NCBI GenBank assembly: GCA_963730605.1
Contig: CAVSSM010000001.1
Location: forward strand, 608,001-672,000
Source: an uncultured Chlamydiae bacterium
GTDB taxonomy: Bacteria; Chlamydiota; Chlamydiia; Chlamydiales; SM23-39
Direction of reading: 5' to 3'
Length of the DNA: 64,000 nucleotides
Shown here: positions 16,859 to 29,562 of the stretch, in pieces
How the letters are laid out: every line of letters begins with the position of its first letter
Numbering within the stretch: the stretch's first letter is position 1
Program-made: the position numbers and the translations under genes
Notes under the pieces: generated by a model
Told to the model about the DNA's origin: nothing
Database searches by the model: none
What the model saw: the letters and a program-made list of their open reading frames with translations, nothing else

Positions 16859-18322
16859 TTAAATATTTTTGCTCACAATTTCAGCGATTGCTTTGCGGTT
16901 GATTTTGTGGCCATTTTTGGGCAATTCATCATTGATGAAGAGAAAGCGGATAGGGATTTTGAACTTCGGAAGATGCTCGAGAAGGGCGCTTTTCAGGTAG
17001 GCGGGGTCTTTAGCTCGGGTGGACGCCACGAGGACCGCGAGCGGACGCTTGCCGAATTCAGGGTCGTCAACGGGGACCACCGCAGCTTCGAAAACATCCG
17101 GCAGTAAGAGGAGCTGCTGTTCGATCTCTTCGGGCTGGATATTTTCTCCCCCCGAGATGAACTGCCAGTCAATTCTACCCAAAACGGTCAGCCCGTCGTC
17201 TGACATCCGTCCAAGGTCCCCGGTCGCAAACCAGCTATCTTGATCAAACGGCTTTGAGATTCGCCCCTCTTCCCAGTAGCCCTCAAAGAGGCACTTTCCC
17301 CGCACGAGGATCTCGCCGATCTTCCCCTTCCCCAAAGACGATGCGTCTTTGGGGGCCCCTGTGGGGGAAAGGCGAAGTTCCCGTTCGGGAAGAGGAAAGC
17401 CCAAGGGGACCCCGAAGTCGCATCGACTTTGGGGTTGGGGAAAAAAAGATTTAGCGCCTACAGTGACAAGCGATCCCATTTCAGTCAGACCGTAGGACAG
17501 ATAGCAGGGAAGATGTTCAGGAAAAGAAGAGATGGGGGCGCCGCCGATCAGCAGGCACCGAAGATTTTTGTAGACGGGCGATTTCCGGTAAAGCTGGGCC
17601 GGCACGGCTGAAATGTGGGTGATTTCGGGGTCTTTCTCATCGAGGACAACAGTGGCAAGCGCTAAAGTAGAGCGTATAAGGATGCCGATCCCGCCTACAT
17701 GGTAAAGGGGGAGGTTGAGAAGCCAACGGTCCCCGATCCGTAACCCAAGCCATTTGGCAAGAGGCGCGGCGTTCGAGAGGAGATTAGAGAGCGATAGAAC
17801 GGCAATTTTTGGGAGAGCGGTCGAGCCCGAGGTGAAGAGGAGCGCCGCCGGGAAGGAAAGGGGAGGGTAGCGGTTCATGCGGAGGCGCGGGGAAAGGGGG
17901 GAAAAAGGGAGAAAAGAAAGGGGCCCCCGAAGTCGCATCGACTTTGGGGAAAAAAGGGGCCCCCAATGACGCATCGACTTTGGGGAAAAAAGGGGCCCCC
18001 AATGACGCATCGACTTTGGGGAAAAAGAGTCGATGAAGCAACGGGCGTCGAGGCGAGCGAGCAGGGTTTCGATTTGGGAAGCGGGAAGACGAAGCGATAG
18101 TGGGCAGATCGACGCTCCGATGCGCCAAGCGGCAAAAAATAGGGCTGCCGTTTCGCAAGTTGGGCGGTGCAAAAAAGCGATCCGGTCGCCCGGGCCGATG
18201 CCCGAGGCCTCGAGCGCCCGCGCCATCTTGTCCGCAAGCTCGTCAAGCTCTTGAAAGGTCGTCTTGTCAAAGGCGGGCAGTCGGGGAGCGAGTCTCGCGG
18301 CTTCTTTTAACGGACAGGGCAT
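16859..18322 (-). CDS. menE: o-succinylbenzoate-CoA ligase carrying in-frame REP-like inserts
   Basis: FTSGST..PK, YGLTE, ATGDLG, ISGGENIQPEEIE; located in the men cluster. Confidence 0.9.
   Translation of the reverse strand: MPCPLKEAARLAPRLPAFDKTTFQELDELADKMARALEASGIGPGDRIAFLHRPTCETAALFFAAWRIGASICPLSLRLPASQIETLLARLDARCFIDSFSPKSMRHWGPLFSPKSMRHWGPLFSPKSMRLRGPLSFLPFSPLSPRLRMNRYPPLSFPAALLFTSGSTALPKIAVLSLSNLLSNAAPLAKWLGLRIGDRWLLNLPLYHVGGIGILIRSTLALATVVLDEKDPEITHISAVPAQLYRKSPVYKNLRCLLIGGAPISSFPEHLPCYLSYGLTEMGSLVTVGAKSFFPQPQSRCDFGVPLGFPLPERELRLSPTGAPKDASSLGKGKIGEILVRGKCLFEGYWEEGRISKPFDQDSWFATGDLGRMSDDGLTVLGRIDWQFISGGENIQPEEIEQQLLLLPDVFEAAVVPVDDPEFGKRPLAVLVASTRAKDPAYLKSALLEHLPKFKIPIRFLFINDELPKNGHKINRKAIAEIVSKNI
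17330..17434. repeat. Two REP-like hairpins in opposite orientation inside menE
   Basis: CCCCAAAGACGATGCGTCTTTGGGGGCCCC (17330-17359) and GGGGACCCCGAAGTCGCATCGACTTTGGGG (17405-17434). Confidence 0.85.
17919..18026. repeat. Three tandem 36-bp REP-like units inside menE
   Basis: AGGGGCCCCC..CGCATCGACTTTGGGGAAAAA x3, encoding FSPKSMR(H/L)(W/R)GPL x3. Confidence 0.92.
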
Positions 18323-18323
18323 A

Positions 18324-19166
18324 CTAAACAGTTAGTAATTTCGACATGTCGATAGGGGAGGTGCTTCCTGCCCAAGTGAGAAAGCCGTCTTCGGCCTTTA
18401 AGGGAGGTACGAGAAGGTCTTCAGGGAAGAACCGAAATGTATCGAGTCCTGCCGGAGGCGCTCCGTTCTCGTAGCATCTTGCGATTTGGAGAAGGCCTAG
18501 GCTGCTTTCCAAGGCCGAAGAGAGGACGGTTGGCACAGGCAGGGAGGGAAAAAAACCAACGATACTTGGCTTGATGACCGCGGCTTTGAGTGTGGGGATT
18601 TTGTGGCAGGGCAATTTCAAGACCGGTTCATCGACCGCGATCGGAAATCCGGAAAGCTTGGAAAAACGGACAAGTTCGGGAAAAGATTGGACCGGATCTT
18701 CCAGGTATTCGAAATCTTGGGGGGAAAAATGGCGGGTAAACGAGAGGGCCTGGTCGAGGGTCCAAGAGCTGTTGCAGTCGAGCCGGAGCCGATATTTTCC
18801 GAGAAATTTTTTCACGTGGGCGACCGCTTCCTCGATGGACAACCCTCTGAGTTTCAACTTGAGAGTAGAAAATCCAGGGCGGGGGTCATTGACGAGCGCA
18901 AGGGGAATTTTCAGGGGCTTTCCCGAAAAAGGCTTTGATGCGGCTTTGATGCCGAAGCGAACCGAAGGAAGGCAAGGCTTGGCTGAAGCGAGATCGGGAA
19001 AAAACTCTAATATTTCACTTTTCGCCTCCTCTAAGGTTTCAGAGCTCAATCCAGGCAAAGGCGCGATTTCACCCCACCCGTCATTCCACTGGAGAATCAG
19101 CCCTTTACGGATCGGATATTTGGGCCAGGAGGTTTTTAGTTCATAGGAATAGAGTTTGGCTACCAA
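18324..19166 (-). CDS. menC: o-succinylbenzoate synthase
   Basis: GEIAPLPG.S.E, KLK, LRLDCN..W, YLEDP, IAVDE, VLSSALES. Confidence 0.88.
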   Translation of the reverse strand: MVAKLYSYELKTSWPKYPIRKGLILQWNDGWGEIAPLPGLSSETLEEAKSEILEFFPDLASAKPCLPSVRFGIKAASKPFSGKPLKIPLALVNDPRPGFSTLKLKLRGLSIEEAVAHVKKFLGKYRLRLDCNSSWTLDQALSFTRHFSPQDFEYLEDPVQSFPELVRFSKLSGFPIAVDEPVLKLPCHKIPTLKAAVIKPSIVGFFPSLPVPTVLSSALESSLGLLQIARCYENGAPPAGLDTFRFFPEDLLVPPLKAEDGFLTWAGSTSPIDMSKLLTV

Positions 19167-20053
19167 AGTACACCCGCAATGAACACCAAAGTGTAGGCTA
19201 AAAGGAGGAGCGATGTTTCTTCGAGCGCCTCATGAGAGTTGAAGATCTTTTTGAGGGGAGCGAAAAGAATCATGAGGGATGCGGCGGTAATTGTAATGGG
19301 AAATCCTAGAGCGGCAAGCGCAATCGGCACGAGAAAGGCGGCAAAGATAAAAGCAGTATATAAGCCCTTACCAAATTTCGCACCGAACCGGACGACGAGC
19401 GTTTTTTTATTTGCGATCCGGTCGCTTCTCTCGTCGCGAAGGTTATTGGCCATGAGGATCGCAGCCGAGAGAAATGCAGGAGCGAGGCTTGCGATGAATA
19501 AGCGGAAGCCGCATTCGCCTGTTTGGAGAAAATAGGCGCCCATAACGGCGACGGGTCCGTAAAAGATGAGGACTAGAATCTCGCCGAGGCCAAGATACCC
19601 AAGAGGTTTCGGCCCTCCTGTGTAGAGAATGCCGCACAGGACGCAAAGCGCGGCGATTCCAAAACTCCAAAGCCCACTCGCGAGCATGAGCGGAAGGGCT
19701 AGGCATAAGGCCAATGCGAAAGTGAAGAGAGCTGCCTTGAGCATCGCGCTGGGGGCTATCCATCCAACGCTCACCGCCCGTTTTGGGCCGATCCGCTCTG
19801 AAGTGTCTGCGCCATTTACGAAGTCGAAATAATCGTTCGCATAGTTGGTCCCGATTTGGATGAAAAGGGAAAAGAAGAGCGTTAAAAGAAAGGTGTCCCA
19901 TGAGATGGGGGAATGCCTCGCTGCGAGAGCGCCGCCGATCAGGACGGGACAGATCCCAGCGCTCCAAGTTTTCGGGCGGGAAGCTAAAAAGAGGGCCTTA
20001 AGGGCGCTTGGGGAAGCGGGCGAAATCGGGCTTTCGTTTTTCGTTGAATGCAT
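19160..20053 (-). CDS. menA: 1,4-dihydroxy-2-naphthoate prenyltransferase
   Basis: [26 protein letters not shown]...D..A.KKTL.VR.G. Confidence 0.93.
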
Positions 20054-20816
20054 TGCGTCCTTCTTGTCCTTCCTCCGTCATGTAGAATAGCATCGTCGCA
20101 TTACCAGCCAGCTCTTGCAGCCCCGCTTGTCCGTCACAGTCGGCGTTGAGCCCTGCTTTGAGGCAGCGGATCGCGATCGGCGAATGCTGGAGGATCTCGC
20201 GGCACCATTGGACGGTCGTCTCCTCGAGTTTTTCATAGGGGACGATGCAATTGACGAGTCCCATTTCGAGAGCTTGCTGAGCATTGTACTGGCGGCAAAG
20301 AAACCAAATCTCACGCGCCTTTTTTTGGCCGACGATCCTTGCCAAAAAGGAAGTGCCATAGCCGCCATCGAACGAGCCGACTTTGGGGCCGGTCTGGCCG
20401 AAAATGGCGCTGTCGGCAGCAATGCTGAGGTCGCATAGCACATGCAGCACATGCCCCCCCCCGACCGCAAAGCCTGCGATCATCGCGACGATCGGTTTTG
20501 GGCAAGAACGCATTTGCCTCTGGAAATCGAGGACGTTCAGGCGATGGACGCCTTGCCCGTCGGCATATCCGGCGTCCCCACGGATCTTTTGGTCGCCGCC
20601 AGAGCAAAAAGCCTCTTTCCCTTCCCCAGTCAAAATGACGACCCCGATGGTCGGGTCGTTCCGCGCATCGTTCAAGGCATGGCTCATCTCTTCGACGGTC
20701 ATTGGGCGAAAGGCGTTTCGCACCTGAGGGCGGTTGATGGTGATCTTCGCAATTCCCTCGTGTTTGTGGTATTTGATATCGGTGTAAACGCCGCTCGATT
20801 TCCAGGGAAATGTCAT
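19998..20816 (-). CDS. menB: 1,4-dihydroxy-2-naphthoyl-CoA synthase
   Basis: [32 protein letters not shown]. Confidence 0.97.
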
Positions 20817-21523
20817 AAAATTTTTTCCGCGATGATTTGAGCAAAACTTTCCGGTTTTTCCAGGTGGATGACATGCCCTGATTCCAAAACGATGATCGCC
20901 TCCGGGTGGAGAGCCCGGAATTTCGTGTCCTTTTCGCCGACGATATGGATCGCGGTTTTTACATGTAAGATCGGTTGGTTGCCGAGGCTGAAGTGTACGA
21001 GGGCCTCAGCTAGATCTGGGATGTTTTGTTTTCGGCGCATTGAAAAATCAGGTATATAGCTTTTAAAGAGGGGCTGATCGTACCAGCGTCGCAAAAACTC
21101 GTCAATCGGTAATTCCAAAAGCAGCCTCGCCCATTTAGCATCGCCCTCTTTCCGTTTTTCTTTTTCAACGAAGCTCAAGAGCCCAGGATGGGCTGAGGCG
21201 ACGATGAGCTGAGCGATCCGTTCGGGAAAGCGGAGGGCGTATTGCATGGCGAGCCGCCCCCCCATCGAATAGCCGATGAGATGGAATTTCGGAGCGGGAG
21301 GTTTGATCTCAAAGGTAGGCGAGAAGGGAGAGGAGCCATGCCCTGGCAGATCGACGCCGATGCAATGGCAGGGAGGCAAGTAGGAACAAACGGGCTCCCA
21401 GTCCGCGCTATTTCCCAGAAATCCGTGAAGGAAAACAAGGGGGATGCCGGGCCCTCTTTTGAGAAGGATGGATTTACAACTCATTGAAGGAAAAGGATAC
21501 AGTTTGCTAAAGTTTTGGACCAT
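20813..21523 (-). CDS. menH: SHCHC synthase (alpha/beta hydrolase)
   Basis: [27 protein letters not shown]; located between menD and menB. Confidence 0.85.
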
Positions 21524-21643
21524 GAAAAATGAATTTTTTTGACCTTAACGGAACAAAATTATAACAGGTTATGGAAGGAGAAGCCGATCCAAGAAATTTG
21601 CGACTCTTGCAGGTAAATTTTAAATTGAATAATATTGTACAAA

Positions 21644-21789
21644 TTTTCGGTTCTTTTGAGCCGATTTTCGATTCAAGACTTGGGGGGCAATATCGACAAC
21701 AGTATATGGCCCCCCAAGCTTTGAAGTCGAAAAGCGGCCAAAATAATCCAAAAACTCGGGCGTTCCCTCACTTTGTAGACACCCTCTAA
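21644..21789. mobile_element. Partial family D MITE, inverted relative to 2669-2849
   Basis: Near-identical reverse complement of 2672-2815; ends TTTGTAGACACCCTC|TAA. Confidence 0.85.
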
Positions 21790-21809
21790 ACTAAATTGGG
21801 AGAAATTGA

Positions 21810-22241
21810 ATGACCTATCTCATAGAAAAGAATCATCAAACACATTTAAAGAATTGGAATGAGGTTAGAGAGCTTTTGCTCGGTTCATCACAAGATGCGA
21901 CTATTTCTCGCGAGCAAACTGCCTCGAGAACCTCAACGATGAAAAAAATCTGTAGTTTTGTCGAAATTCTAGCAGTAAGCGGTGCTATGTTAACTCTCGC
22001 ATTGGTGCGTTCTCGCTCTTTGAAATTGTTGGCCATACCACACTTGACTCTAGCATTCGGCTTCAATGAATTGCGCAACGTGGCGCAGAATATGGAACAG
22101 TTGCTTAATGCAGACGTATCTGTCAGAAAAGACGCAAGTTCCCCTGAACAGTTTCTTCGCACTATTTATAAAGGGACATTGCTCATTGAATATTATTTCA
22201 AGGCACTTGGAGAGCCTTACCACCTGAACTCCATACTCTAG
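21810..22241 (+). CDS. Hypothetical membrane protein inserted antisense in the men cluster
   Basis: 143 aa AT-rich ORF with hydrophobic segments; its 3' part is tandemly duplicated. Confidence 0.5.
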   Translation: MTYLIEKNHQTHLKNWNEVRELLLGSSQDATISREQTASRTSTMKKICSFVEILAVSGAMLTLALVRSRSLKLLAIPHLTLAFGFNELRNVAQNMEQLLNADVSVRKDASSPEQFLRTIYKGTLLIEYYFKALGEPYHLNSIL

Positions 22242-22577
22242 CATTCGGCTTCAATGAATTGCGCAACGTGGCGCAGAATATGGAACAGTTGCTTTAGGGG
22301 CTGTTAAAGAATAAAGTAAACTGTTTTGCGGTTCTTAGAGTGGCCCAGATGTCTGCGGCAGCGACAAGGTCAATGTTCGAGCAATATAACCGAGTCGCTG
22401 CCGTCTGGCAGATGGGCCGCTATAATGGCCGGGAAATGGTTTAACTTATTTTTTAACAGCCCCTTAATGCAGACGTATCTGTCAGAAAAGACGCAAGTTC
22501 CCCTGAACGGTTTTTTCGCACTATTTATAAAGGGACATTGCTCATTGAATATTATTTCAAGGCACTTGGAGAGCCTT
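22047..22577 (+). repeat. Tandem duplication (22047-22218 and 22235-22577); the second copy is interrupted by a MITE
   Basis: ACTCTAGCATTCGGCTTC...GGAGAGCCTT occurs twice. Confidence 0.92.
22294..22466. mobile_element. MITE with GGGGCTGTTAAA ends and TTA flanks
   Basis: TTA|GGGGCTGTTAAA ... TTTAACAGCCCC|TTA; the empty site is visible in the first duplicate copy. Confidence 0.9.
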
Positions 22578-22630
22578 CATAAGAGACTGTCTGCGATCCT
22601 ACCATAAGTTGCTCAGTCTAGCTACCATAA

Positions 22631-22806
22631 TACGCAGGGCGAGCGCATCAAATGTTGAATTCGTAGTATGTGCGTACACCCCTACGTTGCCTACCTGATC
22701 AGAGAACGTCTCTGATGAATCGTCCGAACCGGTGTTGCTACTCATTTACCCGTAGGAGGGTACAGGGTCGACTGGATTTTGCATTTTGATGCGCTCGCCC
22801 TGCATA
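22631..22806. mobile_element. TA-flanked MITE-like element
   Basis: 22-bp IR TA(C/T)GCAGGGCGAGCGCATCAAA at both ends (1 mismatch). Confidence 0.8.
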
Positions 22807-22951
22807 AGCTGTAATTAATTCGTAATCTTTACTATGTCGTCGGAACTTCCCCAGCCATGCAAACATTTTCTAAGCGGCTACTGGTCTGCTTTATGAGTTG
22901 AACGATTTGGTCGCATTGATTGTAAGTAAAAAAATGACAATATAAAAAATT

Positions 22952-24781
22952 TTAATTTACGGTAAACACCGACTCTCTCGAGCAAGCGGATTGGAATTTT
23001 TTTTGAAACCTGTAGTTTTCATCCCTCTTTGTAAAGAGTTCCACTAGGGCGCTTTGCTCGAAGGAGATGCGCTCGAAGGGGAGATAGGGGATGCCGAACA
23101 TCCGGGCCGCGTCTTCAAAGCGGAAGGAGTGGGAGGCCGCCATATAGGTTTCGAATTGAGGCCACTCTGCGATGGGAAGATGAGAAAAGATGCCGCTGCC
23201 GAAATTGTTCGAGGCCAAAATAACGACAGGGTGGGCGGTTTTTTTCAAAAGGGGAAGGGAATTCAGGTCATGGAGACAGGTCTGGTCTCCAAGAATGGCA
23301 AGGACGGGGGCGTGAAGCCCCTCCGAGAGCCCTGCAGCAGTGGCGATATTGCCGTCGATGCCCGAAAGGCCCCGGTTGCCAAAAAACCCCAGGCATTTTT
23401 TCGGAAAAAGAAAATGATCGGCGTCGCGGATTGGCATCCCGTTCGCAAGGAAAACGGCAAAAAACTCTGGAAGCATTTCGGCGAGATGACGCATCGCGTG
23501 CGCTTCGGTAAAAGGAAAGTCCTCCCGGAACTGGTTTTCAGAGACGGCCAAGATCTCCTCATCGAGCCCTTTCCATCGGCCAAGCCATGAAGGGTCGCAT
23601 CCACCTGCAAATGTTTCGCAAAAAGGTTCGATATCGCACTGCAAACGGCCATGCAATCTCCGGTTCGGATCTTGAAGAAAAGGGGACGGGCTTACATGGA
23701 GTGTCGGCGCCCAATCTAGAATTTTTTTAGAGGCGAACCGATTGCCGAAATGAAGGATATAATCAGGGAACAGGTGCGGATTTGTTTTGATAATCCAATC
23801 GAAATGGCGGATCTGTTCGTAAGAGGGCTCTAGCCTCGCATTGGATAGGATGTCGGCAAATACGGGCCATTGAAGCCTTTCCGCAAGGGTCAAGATAGGA
23901 CGGGGATCGGATCCGGTCTCGCCGATGAAGATGACCCCTCGTTTTGCCTCTGTTTTGGTTGGAGGCGGGACGAGGCGGGCAGGGGCAAAGCGGATGGGGA
24001 ATCCCGATTCTTGGGGAGGATCTCGAGTAAAAGGTTCGCGGAATTGGCAATTGAGCTGGACGGGGCCTTTCGGGTTTTGGGTCGCGTGGAAGACCCCTTG
24101 CGCGGCGATTGAGCGGAAATAACTTTCGGAAAGGTGTGGCGGAAGATCGGCTTGCCAGCGGATAAAATGGCTGAAAATCTTGATTTGGTCCGTGGTTTGG
24201 TTTGCGCCGCAATCTCGGAGCTCTGCGGGCCGATCGCAAGTCAGAAGAATCATCGGCGTGGAGCTGTGGTGCGCCTCCATGACGCTGGGGAGAAGATTGC
24301 CGACGGCGGTCCCCGAGGTCGTGATCACGGCAGCGGGGCGCCTTGCCCCTTTTCCATATCCTAACGCATAAAAACCAAGGCCCCGCTCGTCATAATGGAC
24401 GATCGTTTTCGTTCGAGGGTGTTCTGCGGCCGCCACGACAAGCGGCGTATTTCTCGATCCTGGGGCAATGCAGAAATGATCGGTCCCTTGGCAGATCAAT
24501 TGATCGATGATCCAAAATGCCTCTTTATTAACATGGGTGGTAAAAAGTTGACAATCTACTTGCTGCGCCTCCCTTCGGGCCGATTCGCTTCGCTCATCTG
24601 CTCCGCGAGAAAAAGGTTTCTCGAACCTTTTTCTCGATTCCGCAGCCAAATCGATCTTCCTCGTCGCCCTTGCCTCTGGCAATGGTGCTCCTTGTTCAGA
24701 ACGGGGGCTTTGCCCCCTTCGATTTTGCTGTGGCTCGCTGGCGTATATTGTCTCCTTTTTATCGCCCCTGTTAATAGTCAT
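22952..24781 (-). CDS. menD: SEPHCHC synthase with an 83-aa N-terminal in-frame insert
   Basis: PGSRNTPL, DERGLGF.ALG, TTSGTAVGNLLP, GANQTTDQ, GNRGLSGIDG, GD...LHDLNSL. Confidence 0.95.
   Translation of the reverse strand: MTINRGDKKETIYASEPQQNRRGQSPRSEQGAPLPEARATRKIDLAAESRKRFEKPFSRGADERSESARREAQQVDCQLFTTHVNKEAFWIIDQLICQGTDHFCIAPGSRNTPLVVAAAEHPRTKTIVHYDERGLGFYALGYGKGARRPAAVITTSGTAVGNLLPSVMEAHHSSTPMILLTCDRPAELRDCGANQTTDQIKIFSHFIRWQADLPPHLSESYFRSIAAQGVFHATQNPKGPVQLNCQFREPFTRDPPQESGFPIRFAPARLVPPPTKTEAKRGVIFIGETGSDPRPILTLAERLQWPVFADILSNARLEPSYEQIRHFDWIIKTNPHLFPDYILHFGNRFASKKILDWAPTLHVSPSPFLQDPNRRLHGRLQCDIEPFCETFAGGCDPSWLGRWKGLDEEILAVSENQFREDFPFTEAHAMRHLAEMLPEFFAVFLANGMPIRDADHFLFPKKCLGFFGNRGLSGIDGNIATAAGLSEGLHAPVLAILGDQTCLHDLNSLPLLKKTAHPVVILASNNFGSGIFSHLPIAEWPQFETYMAASHSFRFEDAARMFGIPYLPFERISFEQSALVELFTKRDENYRFQKKFQSACSRESVFTVN
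24526..24776. mobile_element. TA-flanked MITE (family B) inserted in frame in menD
   Basis: 30-bp imperfect TIRs TATTAACA(T/G)GGG(T/C)G(G/A)TAAAAAG..GACAAT; 247 bp + TA = 249 bp = 83 codons. Confidence 0.88.
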
Positions 24782-25727
24782 ACGAAGATCCCGTCATAGA
24801 GGCGGCTTTTTTGATTGAGCTCTTCCCATTCCTCTTCTGGTTCGGACCCTTCGACAATGCCGGTTCCAGCATAGAGATAAGCGCGGTTGCCCCTCACAAA
24901 GCAAGAGCGGATTCCGACGATCCATTCGGAAGTTTCGGGGGTGCTCCAACCAAGAGCGCCGCCGTAGAGGCCCCGCTCGAAGGGCTCCAATGCCCGGATC
25001 AGATGGAACGCCTCTTCAGTGGGAGTGCCGCAAAGAGCTGGCGTCGGGTGGATGCGGGAGAGAATTTCTTCATCGGTAAGATTGTTTTTCAAGGTTGCCC
25101 TGCAGCGAGCATAAAGATGTTGGACATTCTGCGTTTTGTGAAGAGCAATGGGAGAAAATGTAAGAGGTCCTTGGCAAATGGGATGGAGAGCGGTTTGCAA
25201 AAATGTTTGCACAGGAGAGAGTTCCCTAAGGTCCTTCGCGCTCTTCATGAGCTCTTGTCCCAGCCTCTCGTCTTCTTCGGGAGAGCTTCCGCGAGGGCGG
25301 GTTCCAGCCATTGCTTCGCTATAAAGATTCTGCCGTTCGCGGAAAAAAGGCGCTCCGGGCTGGCGCCGAAAAAGGAGATGTCACCCTCGCTGAAACAAAA
25401 GACGTGCGCTCCTTGTGCTTTTCTTTGAAGAGCGGCGGTGAGGGCAAAAGGGTCAGGGCATGACTCCAGCTCCAAAATCTGGCAGCGGGCAAGGACGATT
25501 TTTTCCATCTTCTTTGCGAGGGCCTTTTTCACGGCATGGATCCACTCCGCTTTTTCAGGAACGAAGGTCCGTTTTACTACCTCCATTGAGACGGGGGGTG
25601 GGAGATAGTCCACTCTTGACGACTCTTCTTGAAAAGGAGAGCGCGCATTGGGAAAGAAAGGACGGCATTGGAATTTCGCATCTCGCGGCGGGCCTAGCCC
25701 ATCGCGGTCTGACCAATAGACTCTCAA
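24778..25727 (-). CDS. menF: Isochorismate synthase, split by one frameshift near 25315
   Basis: KIVLAR, GASPERLF in the upstream ORF; AGTRPRG, HPTPALCG, RGLYGG.LGW, YAGTGIVEGS in the downstream ORF. Confidence 0.88.
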
Positions 25728-26422
25728 CGCTTCTCCCCTAAATATAAAGTGACGACGCCAAGCGCCATTGGAATTTGCCGAGACGTGAGGGAGGCGCTTT
25801 TCATTAAAGATAAGAAGGCGCCGCCGCTTGGGAAAGTTTCGATCGTCTCGTTCAAATAGCGGTAGGCTGCTCTATTTTTGGAAAAAAATCCGCCAACGTG
25901 AGGAAGGATGCGGCGCAAATAGAAGAGATGGAGCGTTTTCAAGGGCTTTGGCGGCAAGGAAAATTCCAAGATAAGACACCTTCCGCCGGGTTTCAGGACA
26001 CGGGCAATTTCTTTGAGCGCGGCACTCGGATCGGACACGTTGCGGATCCCGAAAGAAAACGTCGCCGCATCGAAAGAGCTATCCCTAAAGGGGAGCCGCA
26101 AAGCGTCGGCGCGCTGAAATTTGACTTTTGTTTTGTAAGGTTTCGATCCGATTTTGGCCTGGGCAATTTCGAGCATGAAAGAGGCAAGGTCGATGCCGAC
26201 CGCGGACCGGATGTGGGCGTCGCTCTCCATGCAGGCGATGAGCTGATCCCCTGTCCCTGTCGCTATGTCGAGGAGATCCAGATTTTTTCGCTCTGGCAGG
26301 TGCAGGGCGGCACGCCTTCTCCAACCGCGGTCCATCCCAAAGGATAGGATCGAGTTGATCCGGTCATAGGTCGCTGAGATCGCATCGAACATTTTCCAGA
26401 CGTTTTCCCGGGAGTGGGTCAT
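25724..26422 (-). CDS. menG: Demethylmenaquinone methyltransferase
   Basis: MFDAIS..YD..N..LSFG, LDIATGTGD, FGIRNV, RVLKPGG...ILEFS. Confidence 0.93.
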   Translation of the reverse strand: MTHSRENVWKMFDAISATYDRINSILSFGMDRGWRRRAALHLPERKNLDLLDIATGTGDQLIACMESDAHIRSAVGIDLASFMLEIAQAKIGSKPYKTKVKFQRADALRLPFRDSSFDAATFSFGIRNVSDPSAALKEIARVLKPGGRCLILEFSLPPKPLKTLHLFYLRRILPHVGGFFSKNRAAYRYLNETIETFPSGGAFLSLMKSASLTSRQIPMALGVVTLYLGEKR

Positions 26423-28083
26423 GCGGTTGCCTCTTGCTCGGCGGTTCTAGTGTTCGCAGCAAGGAGACCCGCCGCAAGGAAAAATGGGAGCTTCCCTTGC
26501 TGAAAGAGGAGCGGGTAAAAATCGCAGCCCCCGATGAAAAGAAAGGCGATAAAAATAGCGGTCAAAGAGGCAGTGAGGGGGGTAAGGGGTGTGTGGCTCG
26601 CCGCCCAAAGCAAGGAGAAAATGAAGAGGAGAAACGCGGAAAGAGATAGAAGACCCGTTTCTCCAGCCAAGTAGAGATAGATATTATGAGTGGCGCTCGA
26701 CGCTGGGAATTCCTTGCCCCCGAAAGGCTTTTGGGGGAGATAATCAAGGCCGCGGATCGAGAGCTGGTCAAACCCGGCGCCAAAAAGGGGAAAGTCTTTG
26801 ATGACTTGGAGCGCCAAGTTTTGATAGGAGATCCGAAGAGCGTCCGACCCTTGCGCAACCCCATTGTAATTCACGATCCCGCCGCGATCCTTGATTTGGG
26901 TCTGAAGGACAAGAAAGCTAAAAAGGATGGAGAAGGTTATTGTAAGGGCAGGAAGCCGGATCGACTTCCAGAGGAAACGTAAACCATTTTGCCTCAAATG
27001 GAGACCGAACCAGGCCAGGGTGCCGAGCATCAAACTAAAAAGCGCTGACCGGGAAAACGTTAGACTCATCGCGAAGAATTGGATGGGAATCATCAGTGCC
27101 GCTGCAAGACGCCACTTTGGGCGGGAAAAAAGCGAATAAGCCGCAAGGATTGACATGCTTAAATACCCGCCCAGGACGTTTGGGTGCGGGAAGGTGCCTG
27201 AAGGTCGGATCACTTCGCGCGGCTGCACGCCTAAGTTGTTATCGAACAGCCAAATGCGTCCCGAATCGACACCAAATACAGGAAAGCTGGACGGCTCGCT
27301 GAAGAGGCGGAGGCCAAGAGGCCCTTGAATTGCGTATTGGGCGATCGCGAGGCCCGATTGGATGAGCGCGGTTCCTATAAGGCATTGGAGCAAAAGAAAA
27401 GAGAGTTTGGATTTGTCCTCTACTCTCCCGTTGGCAAGGAAACAAAAAAGGATAAAGGGGGTGGCAAGTTGCAATAGGCGGATGTAGGGGATAGGGTAAC
27501 TGGCAAAAGGAGAAAGGGCGATCGAAATCAAAGCGCAAAGAAAAACGGTCCAAAGAAAAACGGCGCCTCTAGGTATGAAGAATCGTCTCAAAGGGATGCG
27601 GAACGCAAAAAGGGCAATGAAGAGGAGCAAAAGAGCGATGACATCGGAAGGGTAGAAATAGATCTTCTTATCGAAGAAGCTCGGCAAAACTAGATTTCCC
27701 GGGATGAGTTTCAGAGAAAAAAAACGGAAGAGCTTGTCGTATTTGTGCTCGAAGGGAATAGCAAAAGCGATAACGCAGAGGAGAAAAAGGGATATACTGC
27801 GCGCGGTTGGCTTCTTAAAATTTGGACGGGCTGCGACTTCGCCAAATCGATCTGCTCCGCGAGAAAAACGGTCCATCCGAGGACCGTTTTTCTCGATTCC
27901 GCAGTCCTCGGAAATATTGCCTTCGGATATTTCCTTCGCCCCGTCCCCAAAAACGATGCGTTGTTTGGGGGCCCCTGGGGAGGTCGGTCGGACCGCTTCG
28001 CTTCGATTTTGCTTTGTCTCGCTTGCGTTCAAATTTAAAAATCCTTCCCGCGCGCAGTATAGACGCCGCCAAAACATAAACAC
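26419..28083 (-). CDS. O-antigen ligase (Wzy_C/WaaL-like) membrane protein with an 89-aa in-frame insert
   Basis: Polytopic; GTFPHPNVLGG, TFSRSA, P.FGAG, HNIYLYLAGETG; probable start at ATG 28077. Confidence 0.85.
   Translation of the reverse strand: MFMFWRRLYCAREGFLNLNASETKQNRSEAVRPTSPGAPKQRIVFGDGAKEISEGNISEDCGIEKNGPRMDRFSRGADRFGEVAARPNFKKPTARSISLFLLCVIAFAIPFEHKYDKLFRFFSLKLIPGNLVLPSFFDKKIYFYPSDVIALLLLFIALFAFRIPLRRFFIPRGAVFLWTVFLCALISIALSPFASYPIPYIRLLQLATPFILFCFLANGRVEDKSKLSFLLLQCLIGTALIQSGLAIAQYAIQGPLGLRLFSEPSSFPVFGVDSGRIWLFDNNLGVQPREVIRPSGTFPHPNVLGGYLSMSILAAYSLFSRPKWRLAAALMIPIQFFAMSLTFSRSALFSLMLGTLAWFGLHLRQNGLRFLWKSIRLPALTITFSILFSFLVLQTQIKDRGGIVNYNGVAQGSDALRISYQNLALQVIKDFPLFGAGFDQLSIRGLDYLPQKPFGGKEFPASSATHNIYLYLAGETGLLSLSAFLLFIFSLLWAASHTPLTPLTASLTAIFIAFLFIGGCDFYPLLFQQGKLPFFLAAGLLAANTRTAEQEATA
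27793..28061. mobile_element. TA-flanked MITE (family A) inserted in frame
   Basis: Perfect ends TATACTGCGCGCGG and CCGCGCGCAGTATA; 265 bp + TA = 267 bp = 89 codons; second copy at 63799-64000. Confidence 0.93.
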
Positions 28084-28164
28084 GACGTCAAACTTATCGC
28101 ATATGCAGATTTAGTTCAAAACTACTTAGCTCTCATCCCAAAAAAGCCCCTGGATTTTTTCTCT

Positions 28165-29562
28165 TCATGGACAGGCTTCTCGACCACATTGGCATTTTCT
28201 TGGCCATAGAGTGGATTCCTCTAGAGGATTCTCTGCATTATCTTGGATTTCGAGTTGATGTTCTTGTTTGAGGTAGTTCTTAAGAATTCGATCAATGGTA
28301 CTGATCTCTAGCGCATTTTTATTTCTTACTTCTGTTTTCAATCGATTGATGAATTTAAAAATGTCGCGACCTGAGAACCCTTCTGTTTGGTTGCCAATAT
28401 GTTCGATAATCTCCGGTGTAAAGAAACGTCGATATTCGGAGGGAGTCACAAGGAGATCGACGTTGCTTCTGGTCATCTCTTTCCGTTCCGCCAGCTCAGG
28501 AGCTCCAATTTTGATTTTGTAATCCATACGGCTCAGTATTGCTGGATCCAGATTTTTCGGAAGATTTGTAGCAAAGACCCACATGATTTTAGAACTAGAT
28601 GAACTTGTTAATTTCAGGAATGCATTTAAAAAAGACACTAATTCTTGGCTTTTGCCATTTTTTTTGGCTTCCTCCCTGTTTTCAAAGCATGCTTCCGCTT
28701 CATCCACAAAAATAACGGTTTGAGAAGGGAGGCTTTTCACATATTCTACCAATTTTTGCAACATGTCGACCGCTGCGCCCGCAGAGTTCTGATTCGAGAC
28801 GCGGACGCTGACCGGTCCTTGCAAAGCGTTATAATTCATCCCTTTTAAGAAATCTCCGCCAGAAATGTACATGTAATTCATATTGGAGTTCTTTGCGATC
28901 CATTTTGAGATCATTGTTTTTCCTGTTCCAGGAGGACCGTAGACAAGTAGATGTTGAAAAAAGTCATTTCTTTCTTTGCTTGTCTGCGTGGTGGCTAGGA
29001 TTTCATCAAGTTCTGCTTGGAGCTTAGGGCTAAATATGGGTTTTGTTTCCAAAGAGAGATCCTTGTCAAAGTATTGGGAAATCACTTCGTAGGAGCCAAG
29101 AGCTAGCGATGCTCCGACTCCGATCAGCGTAGGCAATACCCACAAAGAGATCAGGTCGTTTCCAAAATAGTCCTTACTAAAGCCAAAGAGATTGAGACAA
29201 GACGAGGTTGTTTTATGCGCCAGAGTCCAAAGGGACTTCGCTGTAGGATGCATATCGGAATAAAGCCAAGAGAGCCATAACGCTCCTCCGGTGATACTGG
29301 ATGCGGTAGCCCCTTCTACTCGATGCGCCCAGAATTTGGAGCCAAACTCTTGGGCTTTTTGTTTGGTATTAGGCCACCAATCCACATAATTTATTTTAAC
29401 TGGCAAGGATTCACTTTCAAAAAATTTATTAGCAAGAGATGATAATATGCTTTTTGTCATCATCGCGCCAAAGGCGAGTGCGCCCATCTTATACACAGTG
29501 CTCTGGACGTTTTTTAAAGAATTTGCTATATCATCCAAACTATTTATATTAATATTATTCAT
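28165..29562 (-). CDS. AAA+ ATPase with N-terminal hydrophobic segments (ATAD3-like)
   Basis: LLVYGPPGTGKT, ISGGD, FVDEAEA, LNAFL, ATN.P..LDPAILSRMD, TEGFSGRDI. Confidence 0.85.
   Translation of the reverse strand: MNNININSLDDIANSLKNVQSTVYKMGALAFGAMMTKSILSSLANKFFESESLPVKINYVDWWPNTKQKAQEFGSKFWAHRVEGATASSITGGALWLSWLYSDMHPTAKSLWTLAHKTTSSCLNLFGFSKDYFGNDLISLWVLPTLIGVGASLALGSYEVISQYFDKDLSLETKPIFSPKLQAELDEILATTQTSKERNDFFQHLLVYGPPGTGKTMISKWIAKNSNMNYMYISGGDFLKGMNYNALQGPVSVRVSNQNSAGAAVDMLQKLVEYVKSLPSQTVIFVDEAEACFENREEAKKNGKSQELVSFLNAFLKLTSSSSSKIMWVFATNLPKNLDPAILSRMDYKIKIGAPELAERKEMTRSNVDLLVTPSEYRRFFTPEIIEHIGNQTEGFSGRDIFKFINRLKTEVRNKNALEISTIDRILKNYLKQEHQLEIQDNAENPLEESTLWPRKCQCGREACP

Follow-up and report, generated by a model that had tools for sequence, protein, structure and literature searches.

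A palindromic MITE inserted in frame after codon 2 of a chlamydial menD, probably tolerated as an N-terminal tail

Introduction

The Rickettsia palindromic elements RPE-1 to RPE-10 (Ogata et al. 2000, 2002) are hairpin repeats that, in the accessible text of the papers treating them, lie in frame in housekeeping genes, and one RPE-bearing enzyme, Gmk, is reported there to be active (PMC10969869, PMC2229807, PMC3767692). TA-flanked MITEs fused to open reading frames, 5' extensions included, are likewise known from the available portions of papers on ERIC/IRU/RU-1, Correia/NEMIS and RUP (Delihas; PMC2229807, PMC3184786, PMC2759123), and disruptive MITEs are described in the accessible part of another paper (PMC4853749). 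For Chlamydiae, our search found no paper on in-frame elements; most subscription papers and supplements lay outside that search, so it does not establish absence from print.

In this study, we examine an insertion in menD within a window of 64,000 nt (the whole stretch of DNA analysed) from the genome of an uncultured Chlamydiae bacterium, here called G000, starting from an initial annotation made from the letters of the window alone. The locus offers a test of whether protein-coding palindromes are adapted to genes or are survivors of random insertion: a near relative supplies the empty allele, the family's other copies serve as a neutral baseline, and a simple complementation assay exists for MenD. 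Our preferred reading, to which we assign a probability of about 0.7, is a tolerated in-frame MITE insertion that gives MenD an 83-residue tail and is a near-neutral passenger rather than an adaptation.

Results

Host gene, men operon and assembly

menD (22952..24781, minus strand) encodes SEPHCHC synthase, of 609 aa with the insert and 526 aa without it, in a frame without interruption between its ATG (24781) and its stop (22952). The protein scores 368 bits against TIGR00173 (cut-off 244), and its best Foldseek match is B. subtilis MenD (2x7j, E 6e-41, TM 0.79-0.83); the fold also matches the L. monocytogenes, S. aureus and E. coli enzymes, and the invariant DER, GD and NN motif columns are present. 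No other MenD match occurs in the genome, and a search of this assembly, which is 83% complete, for the futalosine-pathway family PF02621 gave nothing. Menaquinone synthesis has been noted for Rhabdochlamydia helvetica in the accessible text of PMC6490308.

The neighboring genes on the same strand are menF (isochorismate synthase, 24778..25727), whose TGA overlaps the menD ATG, and, upstream of menF and coupled to it, the menG/ubiE methyltransferase gene (25724..26422). The ATGA overlap at 24781 was correctly described in the initial annotation and recurs in G003, the closest relative. The remainder of the classical menaquinone pathway, menH, menB, menA, menC and menE, is encoded in open frames at 16859..21523, also on the minus strand, and menH starts this second men block 1.4 kb beyond menG-menF-menD. 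The cluster is thus interrupted between menD and menH; the intervening 21523-22950 holds, on the opposite strand, an orphan open reading frame of 143 aa, together with an end resembling that of a 1249-nt IS (CAGGGCGAGCGCATCAAA). Around codons 106-130, menE (16859-18322) contains a short in-frame tandem repeat with units like SPKSMRHWGPLF, which resembles a 'CCCCAAAGACGCATC' mini-repeat expanded in other genes (C1:697560, C5:65874) and is a second kind of in-frame expansion.

In the assembly, menF is split near 25342, where a homopolymer is one base short relative to short-read contigs and to G003. The extra base is present in contigs of X1, X2 and X5 (three of four runs, from two studies; the fourth run had no coverage there), and menF is in frame in G003. 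The break is most likely an assembly error, and the operon therefore looks whole; operon decay through menF was rejected as a candidate on the same evidence. A net frameshift against this assembly occurs in 77 of 728 G003 gene alignments, an unsorted set in which probable assembly errors stand beside paralogs and misalignments. Assembly error may likewise account for other apparent frameshifts in this genome. As to the insert itself, a single short-read contig of run X1 (24393-24608, depth 3.6, one other letter) spans its 3' junction, while the 5' junction lay outside the coverage of all four DNA runs; X1 may be the source sample.

Structure of the element

The insert occupies 24526..24776 on the minus strand, as do the parts of it described below, and runs from TA to TA over 251 nt. 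It is a MITE: short, bounded by terminal inverted repeats (TIRs), without a transposase gene, associated with a TA duplication, present in dispersed copies and able to form a stable stem-loop. Alignment to the G003 empty site leaves a clean gap and gives a net gain of 249 nt, or 83 codons, after codon 2 of menD, exactly as first proposed. The imperfect 30-bp TIRs with TA ends of the initial annotation also stand, as part of a 34-nt repeat (82%) whose first 30 positions are complementary at 25. Genome-wide, only 2 of 3311 TA...TA windows of 251 nt reach 25/30, the menD copy and a sister at C4:69111, and none of 20000 shuffles does so (best 19). The whole element folds at -100.4 kcal/mol (z -8.4), a stability equalled by 0 of 200 shuffles.

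In the menD sense, the 5' TIR (24743..24776) is bipartite, with a conserved outer TATTAAC, a variable 9-nt middle and a conserved inner AAAnAGGWGACAA. The TA of the 3' TIR (24526..24559) is the duplicated target, made of the third base of codon 2 and the first base of codon 3. Between the repeats lies a 72-nt internal hairpin cassette (24573..24644) that is missing from the ~178-nt form of the family and is akin to cassettes within MITEs with other TIRs. The length of the menD element is a multiple of three because 177+72 is. With the TA at codon positions 3|1, this copy is stop-free in both orientations; the other four frames contain stops. The encoded 83 aa are hydrophilic and basic (GRAVY -1.4, pI 9.7); a set of 150 candidate longer proteins contained no homolog at E<=0.001, which is weak evidence.

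In a promoter scan of the element, the TIRs showed two weak sites (9/12), both facing inward; no outward-facing site exceeded the threshold. Read outward, the conserved inner TIR (24526-24559, minus strand) gives TTGTCA at 17-18 nt from the terminal TAATA, and it failed that scan; the TTGTCA/TAATA spacing resembles a -35/-10 layout, as in Correia elements. Across 22000-28500 there were 0 Rfam matches at E<=1, whether to a group I or group II intron, an IStron or another Rfam RNA.

Copies and modules of the element family

The sister copy at C4:69111 is 93% identical, also 251 nt long, and intergenic, between divergent genes that we take from their translations to be infA and sufE. It differs from the menD copy at 10 non-synonymous and 5 synonymous codons, and therefore no constraint on the peptide is visible. 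A truncated related copy lies at a contig end (C3:1-193) and contributes TAT TAA, the final codon plus the stop, to a gene that, by its translation, presumably encodes a HAD-like hydrolase.

In relatives, the usual form of the family is 176-182 nt long and corresponds to element positions 1-132 and 207-251, without the 72-nt cassette. By this comparison the menD element is a widespread ~178-nt chlamydial MITE core plus the cassette. Family matches, many of them partial, occur in 37 of 102 other genomes of the host family, and the TIR pattern in 35 of 102; among 11 records with the core motif, 7 have chlamydial titles, 2 are titled 'bacterium', 2 'Verrucomicrobia' and none Rickettsia. The 41 loci examined yielded 24 distinct other full-length copies, of which 8 have a length divisible by three. 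Forced read-through within a gene was found in none of these 24, nor in the sister copy (0/1). The menD element family is not frame-adapted, and the notion that it is built open and in multiples of three is ruled out by the same 8/24. One candidate for a second in-gene copy (L186) was discarded, as it lies upstream of a native Met and has no upstream ATG.

The 9-nt middle of the TIR varies between copies yet stays self-complementary. Across 14 copies, both partners have changed in 25 of the 65 predicted pairs, and none of 500 shuffles attains the observed values. The predicted structure comes from the same 14 sequences, and arm-to-arm copying in a palindrome could mimic the pattern without selection. 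On one strand, G-U outnumbers A-C in the fold of the family.

Modules of the element recur elsewhere. Three rounds of nhmmer gave 62 cassette matches in the genome, many within elements with other TIRs (for 38 of the 62 our element list contained an enclosing element, for 24 it did not). The initial annotation had contrasted the TIRs with those of a 'family A', which we took to be the 269-nt element (net 267) at 27793..28061, minus strand, which interrupts an O-antigen-ligase-like gene past codon ~5 and keeps its frame. The difference in TIRs is borne out, and the two elements have the internal scaffold and half of the cassette in common. Just upstream of the same O-antigen-ligase-like gene, G003 carries a 179-nt copy of the menD family (L031:7824-8002); the two are independent insertions within ~50 nt. 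In another genome, the same ~180-nt core (L169:1452-1635) is bounded by TATACTGCGC-type, family-A-like TIRs, which suggests TIR exchange between families.

Search for a transposase

The genome has 29 IS630-type (PF13358) matches. The three IS630 types whose ends were read have ends that differ from those of the menD element. Neither G000 nor the surroundings of 6 IS630 loci, from 5 relatives rich in the menD-type ends, yielded an autonomous element whose ends match. One 1123-nt IS630 element (G000:C1:117041-118163; ~14 copies) has two ends differing in the middle that match those of another large MITE family (TATACCGCTCGTGATT...). From these ends, it is likely the autonomous partner of that other family. 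For the menD element, we infer that the mover was an IS630-type DDE transposase acting in trans.

Empty site, orthologs and selection on menD

G003, 88% identical, has an exact empty site. Cutting the element out in silico restores MTKEAFWIIDQLICQGTDHFCIAPGSRNTPL, where G003 encodes MTKEAFWIIDQLISQGIDHFCIAPGSRNTPL, so the normal MenD start predicted upon excision is indeed recovered. We infer the ancestral TA rather than read it directly, because G003 carries a synonymous change at the target (ACG AAA). A search of 41 genomes gave MenD protein matches in 28; the tally includes G000 itself and some matches that are weak or confined to the element. Several of the relatives searched gave none. 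Comparison with MenD orthologs, suggested at the outset as a check, covered 21 loci, of which 17 have a PGSR-type anchor and were scored and 4 lack the anchor and were left unscored. None of the 17 starts has the N-terminal extension, and an extension common to the orthologs is thereby ruled out. The insertion would postdate the split from G003. A search of metagenomes for filled/empty polymorphism gave 0 matches to the menD-start pattern.

These comparisons bear on whether the insert has been co-opted, with the hairpin tuning menD relative to menF through coupling, RNase cleavage or mRNA stability, or with the basic tail having a role of its own. ERIC and NEMIS transcripts are reported, in the accessible text of one source, to alter mRNA processing (PMC2229807), and the fold of the menD family covaries. 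Against this, the insertion is found in one genome only among the orthologs inspected, and the peptide is without constraint (10 N : 5 S) and, as weak evidence, without a homolog among the 150 candidates. We regard co-option as very unlikely.

The dN/dS of menD against G003 is 0.128, with a genome median of 0.141 (651 of 728 aligned genes, those without a frameshift and with dS>0.1); the menD value mostly reflects time before the insertion and cannot date it. When single-site changes in menD were polarised with G002, the G000 branch had 33 synonymous and 9 non-synonymous changes and the G003 branch 42 and 6; amino-acid changes numbered 13 and 12, respectively. With no excess of amino-acid change on the G000 branch, the substitutions indicate that purifying selection on menD continued.

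Translation start and protein tail

As the initial annotation stated, no in-frame Met lies between the insert and the PGSR motif; to this we add in-frame TTGs at 24682 (codon 34), 24649 (codon 45) and 24499 (codon 95). The last is the only start downstream of the element, and it is disfavoured because its Shine-Dalgarno (SD) sequence is weak and because initiation there would remove the first helix of MenD (helix 86-97). With no downstream Met, and with that helix lost from a codon-95 start, a functional MenD must therefore carry element-coded residues.

TTG is a weak start codon. MenD could nevertheless begin at an element TTG (codon 34 or 45) with an SD sequence supplied by the element, which would leave a tail of ~52 or 41 element residues. 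The SD energies speak for such a start: -7.2 kcal/mol for codon 34 (24680..24682, minus strand, with AAGGAG upstream) and -5.9 for codon 45, against a weak -4.1 for the native ATG. Both TTGs, however, lie within the fold of -100 kcal/mol; opening them would cost 15.0 and 16.8 kcal/mol, no improvement on the ATG, and only the native ATG has the menF stop overlap, retained at the G003 empty site. The codon-34 TTG is a possible alternative start within the element, and the element's TTGs are the chief competitor of the coupled ATG; taken together, we find initiation at either TTG unlikely.

With the element in place, a 34-bp stem begins 5 nt past the menD ATG and the opening energy of the start region rises from 9.3 to 15.4 kcal/mol. 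This rise makes restart by ribosomes leaving menF the likeliest route. On these models, MenD is most likely made from the menF-coupled ATG by read-through of the element, and its expression may be reduced by the stem and the weak native SD. A search of RNA runs gave none that contains the region, which speaks neither for nor against expression. AlphaFold places residues 1-25 and 27-82 below pLDDT 50 and predicts the MenD body confidently (pTM 0.80), so the 83-residue tail is predicted to be disordered. The accessible part of PMC2914249 describes the purification and crystals of a B. subtilis MenD bearing 24 additional residues at its N-terminus, an extension which that enzyme tolerates; the available text of PMC6751169 concerns C-terminal tags. 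We would expect the extended MenD of G000 to have enzyme activity.

The same stem could also mean a very recent insertion that impairs the expression or folding of MenD severely, leaving a hypomorphic gene, or one heading to loss, that has yet to decay. The increase of ~6 kcal/mol over a 34-bp stem favours this, as do a genome full of active IS and MITE copies and the lack of menD in several relatives searched. It is weakened by the 7% difference between the two element copies, from which the element lineage is not brand new, and by a menD free of stops, frameshifts and any excess of amino-acid change on the G000 branch. All men genes are open, the menF break being most likely an assembly error, and disruptive gene-internal insertions are strongly depleted genome-wide (see below). 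A crippled menD is therefore improbable in our judgment.

Census of insertions between the two genomes

Comparison of 1.27 of about 1.7 Mb of G003 with G000, using heuristic gene calls, yielded 50 clean repeat insertions, 39 of them with TIRs. Relative to expectation from TA counts, TIR insertions inside genes are depleted (7 of 39 against 25.5 expected, p 1e-9), which is the mark of purifying selection; 15 are intergenic (9.8 expected), 9 fall in the first 12 codons (1.6 expected) and 8 in the last 15 codons (2.1 expected). Their density per TA within those first 12 codons is 3.5 times that of intergenic DNA. This enrichment toward gene termini may be a real target preference, or it may be a bias arising from start calls or from the need to align two flanks.

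Six of the seven gene-internal insertions have lengths divisible by three, and five are stop-free. Against 12 of 23 among intergenic and C-terminal insertions, the 6/7 is by itself no significant excess (Fisher p 0.19), and the 12/23 itself leans slightly toward multiples of three (against 1/3, p 0.07). Genome-wide, TIR elements outside long open reading frames fall into length classes 0/1/2 as 39/34/51 of 124, and 13 of 19 inside them are multiples of three, classes that are blurred by the choice between inner and outer TA. An upstream ATG and an open frame survive in four of the nine N-terminal insertions, which represent four TIR types: those in menD, rlmD, a nucleotide-transporter-like gene and an unnamed gene. 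In the other five, a downstream start appears to be used or the start call appears to be wrong. Further in-frame cases, some outside the census filters, are in uppP, a dehydrogenase E1 gene, a secretin gene and a sulfatase-like gene.

Altogether, the in-frame insertions in G000 stem from elements with at least 7 TIR types. The proposal that in-frame colonisation is a property of several related families is upheld as far as these TIR types and the common scaffold and cassette go; it does not hold for the menD family, in which 8 of 24 copies are multiples of three and none is forced in-gene. It should be softened to say that several families leave in-frame survivors. In-frame survival has the look of selective filtering across several families rather than of family design.

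The census also bears on whether the element is removed or skipped before translation, by RNA excision, ribosome bypass or frequent precise DNA excision, to give normal MenD. A deep, covarying single-strand fold that joins the two ends (the 25/65 pairs above) speaks for such removal. Removal would, however, leave gene-internal insertions undepleted and not mostly multiples of three, the opposite of what is observed; the element region has no Rfam match (E<=1, 22000-28500), and no element-skipping joint was seen in the four DNA runs, at thin coverage. We consider removal extremely improbable.

Discussion

The tolerated in-frame insertion can be set out as follows. Once the lineage had parted from that of G003, a non-autonomous, TA-targeting MITE, made of the ~178-nt core and the 72-nt cassette, would have entered the TA shared by codons 2 and 3 of menD and duplicated it, with an IS630-type DDE transposase acting in trans. 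The gene would have survived as the copy was by chance a multiple of three long and stop-free in the frame set by the TA phase. Ribosomes finishing menF at the ATGA overlap would restart on menD and unwind the hairpin, and the resulting MenD would carry, at its N-terminus, a disordered tail of 83 residues to which the ThDP fold is tolerant. Such an insertion would be a near-neutral passenger that has passed purifying selection.

As a test of adaptation against survival, the data favour survival by filtering. The single menD insertion is only modestly surprising, since N-terminal tails are readily tolerated. The case extends the phenomenon of in-frame palindromes to Chlamydiota, and such elements cause wrong start calls in the annotation of chlamydial genomes.

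A more far-reaching reading, which we hold to be doubtful, is a modular chlamydial superfamily whose structured core, maintained as a folded single strand, swaps terminal repeats and gains hairpin cassettes, may be recognised or copied through its fold and not through TIR sequence alone, and may prefer gene termini. The fold-guided part is suggested by a TIR middle that changes freely yet stays paired and by the surplus of G-U over A-C on one strand, and the preference for termini by the 9 and 8 insertions in first and last codons where 1.6 and 2.1 were expected. If true, this would be a structure-guided mobile element biased to harmless read-through sites, and a steady source of new chlamydial protein termini.

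Compared with described systems, the host protein is an ordinary MenD (TIGR00173) in score, fold, motif columns and men cluster, and differs in its 83-residue N-terminal insertion derived from a mobile element. The insert is like the RPEs, as the accessible sources describe them, in being an in-frame hairpin in a conserved housekeeping gene of an obligate intracellular host, with its peptide outside the folded core. It differs in its length (251 nt against 105-146 nt), its clear TA duplication and its chlamydial host. Moreover, RPE-1 to -3 are, in that same text, often in open reading frames and have a conserved peptide, whereas the menD family is not frame-adapted (8/24 multiples of three, none forced in-gene). 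The element thus works like the RPEs but is not an RPE, a separation made on the different host and on a family that is not gene-resident.

With ERIC, Correia and RUP, as far as the available text describes them, the element shares TA termini with target duplication, TIRs, a long stem-loop, the lack of a transposase and the formation of 5' and 3' gene extensions. In the same partial sources, the long form of Correia carries an extra 50-bp internal module, comparable to the 72-nt cassette, and RUP is proposed to move by an IS630 transposase, as we propose for the menD element. ERIC, with its 127-bp consensus, carries ~70-bp internal insertions, and the menD element resembles it in design. From all three, the menD element differs in sequence and host, in a TIR middle that varies between copies yet remains self-complementary, and in a single scaffold that occurs with different TIRs.
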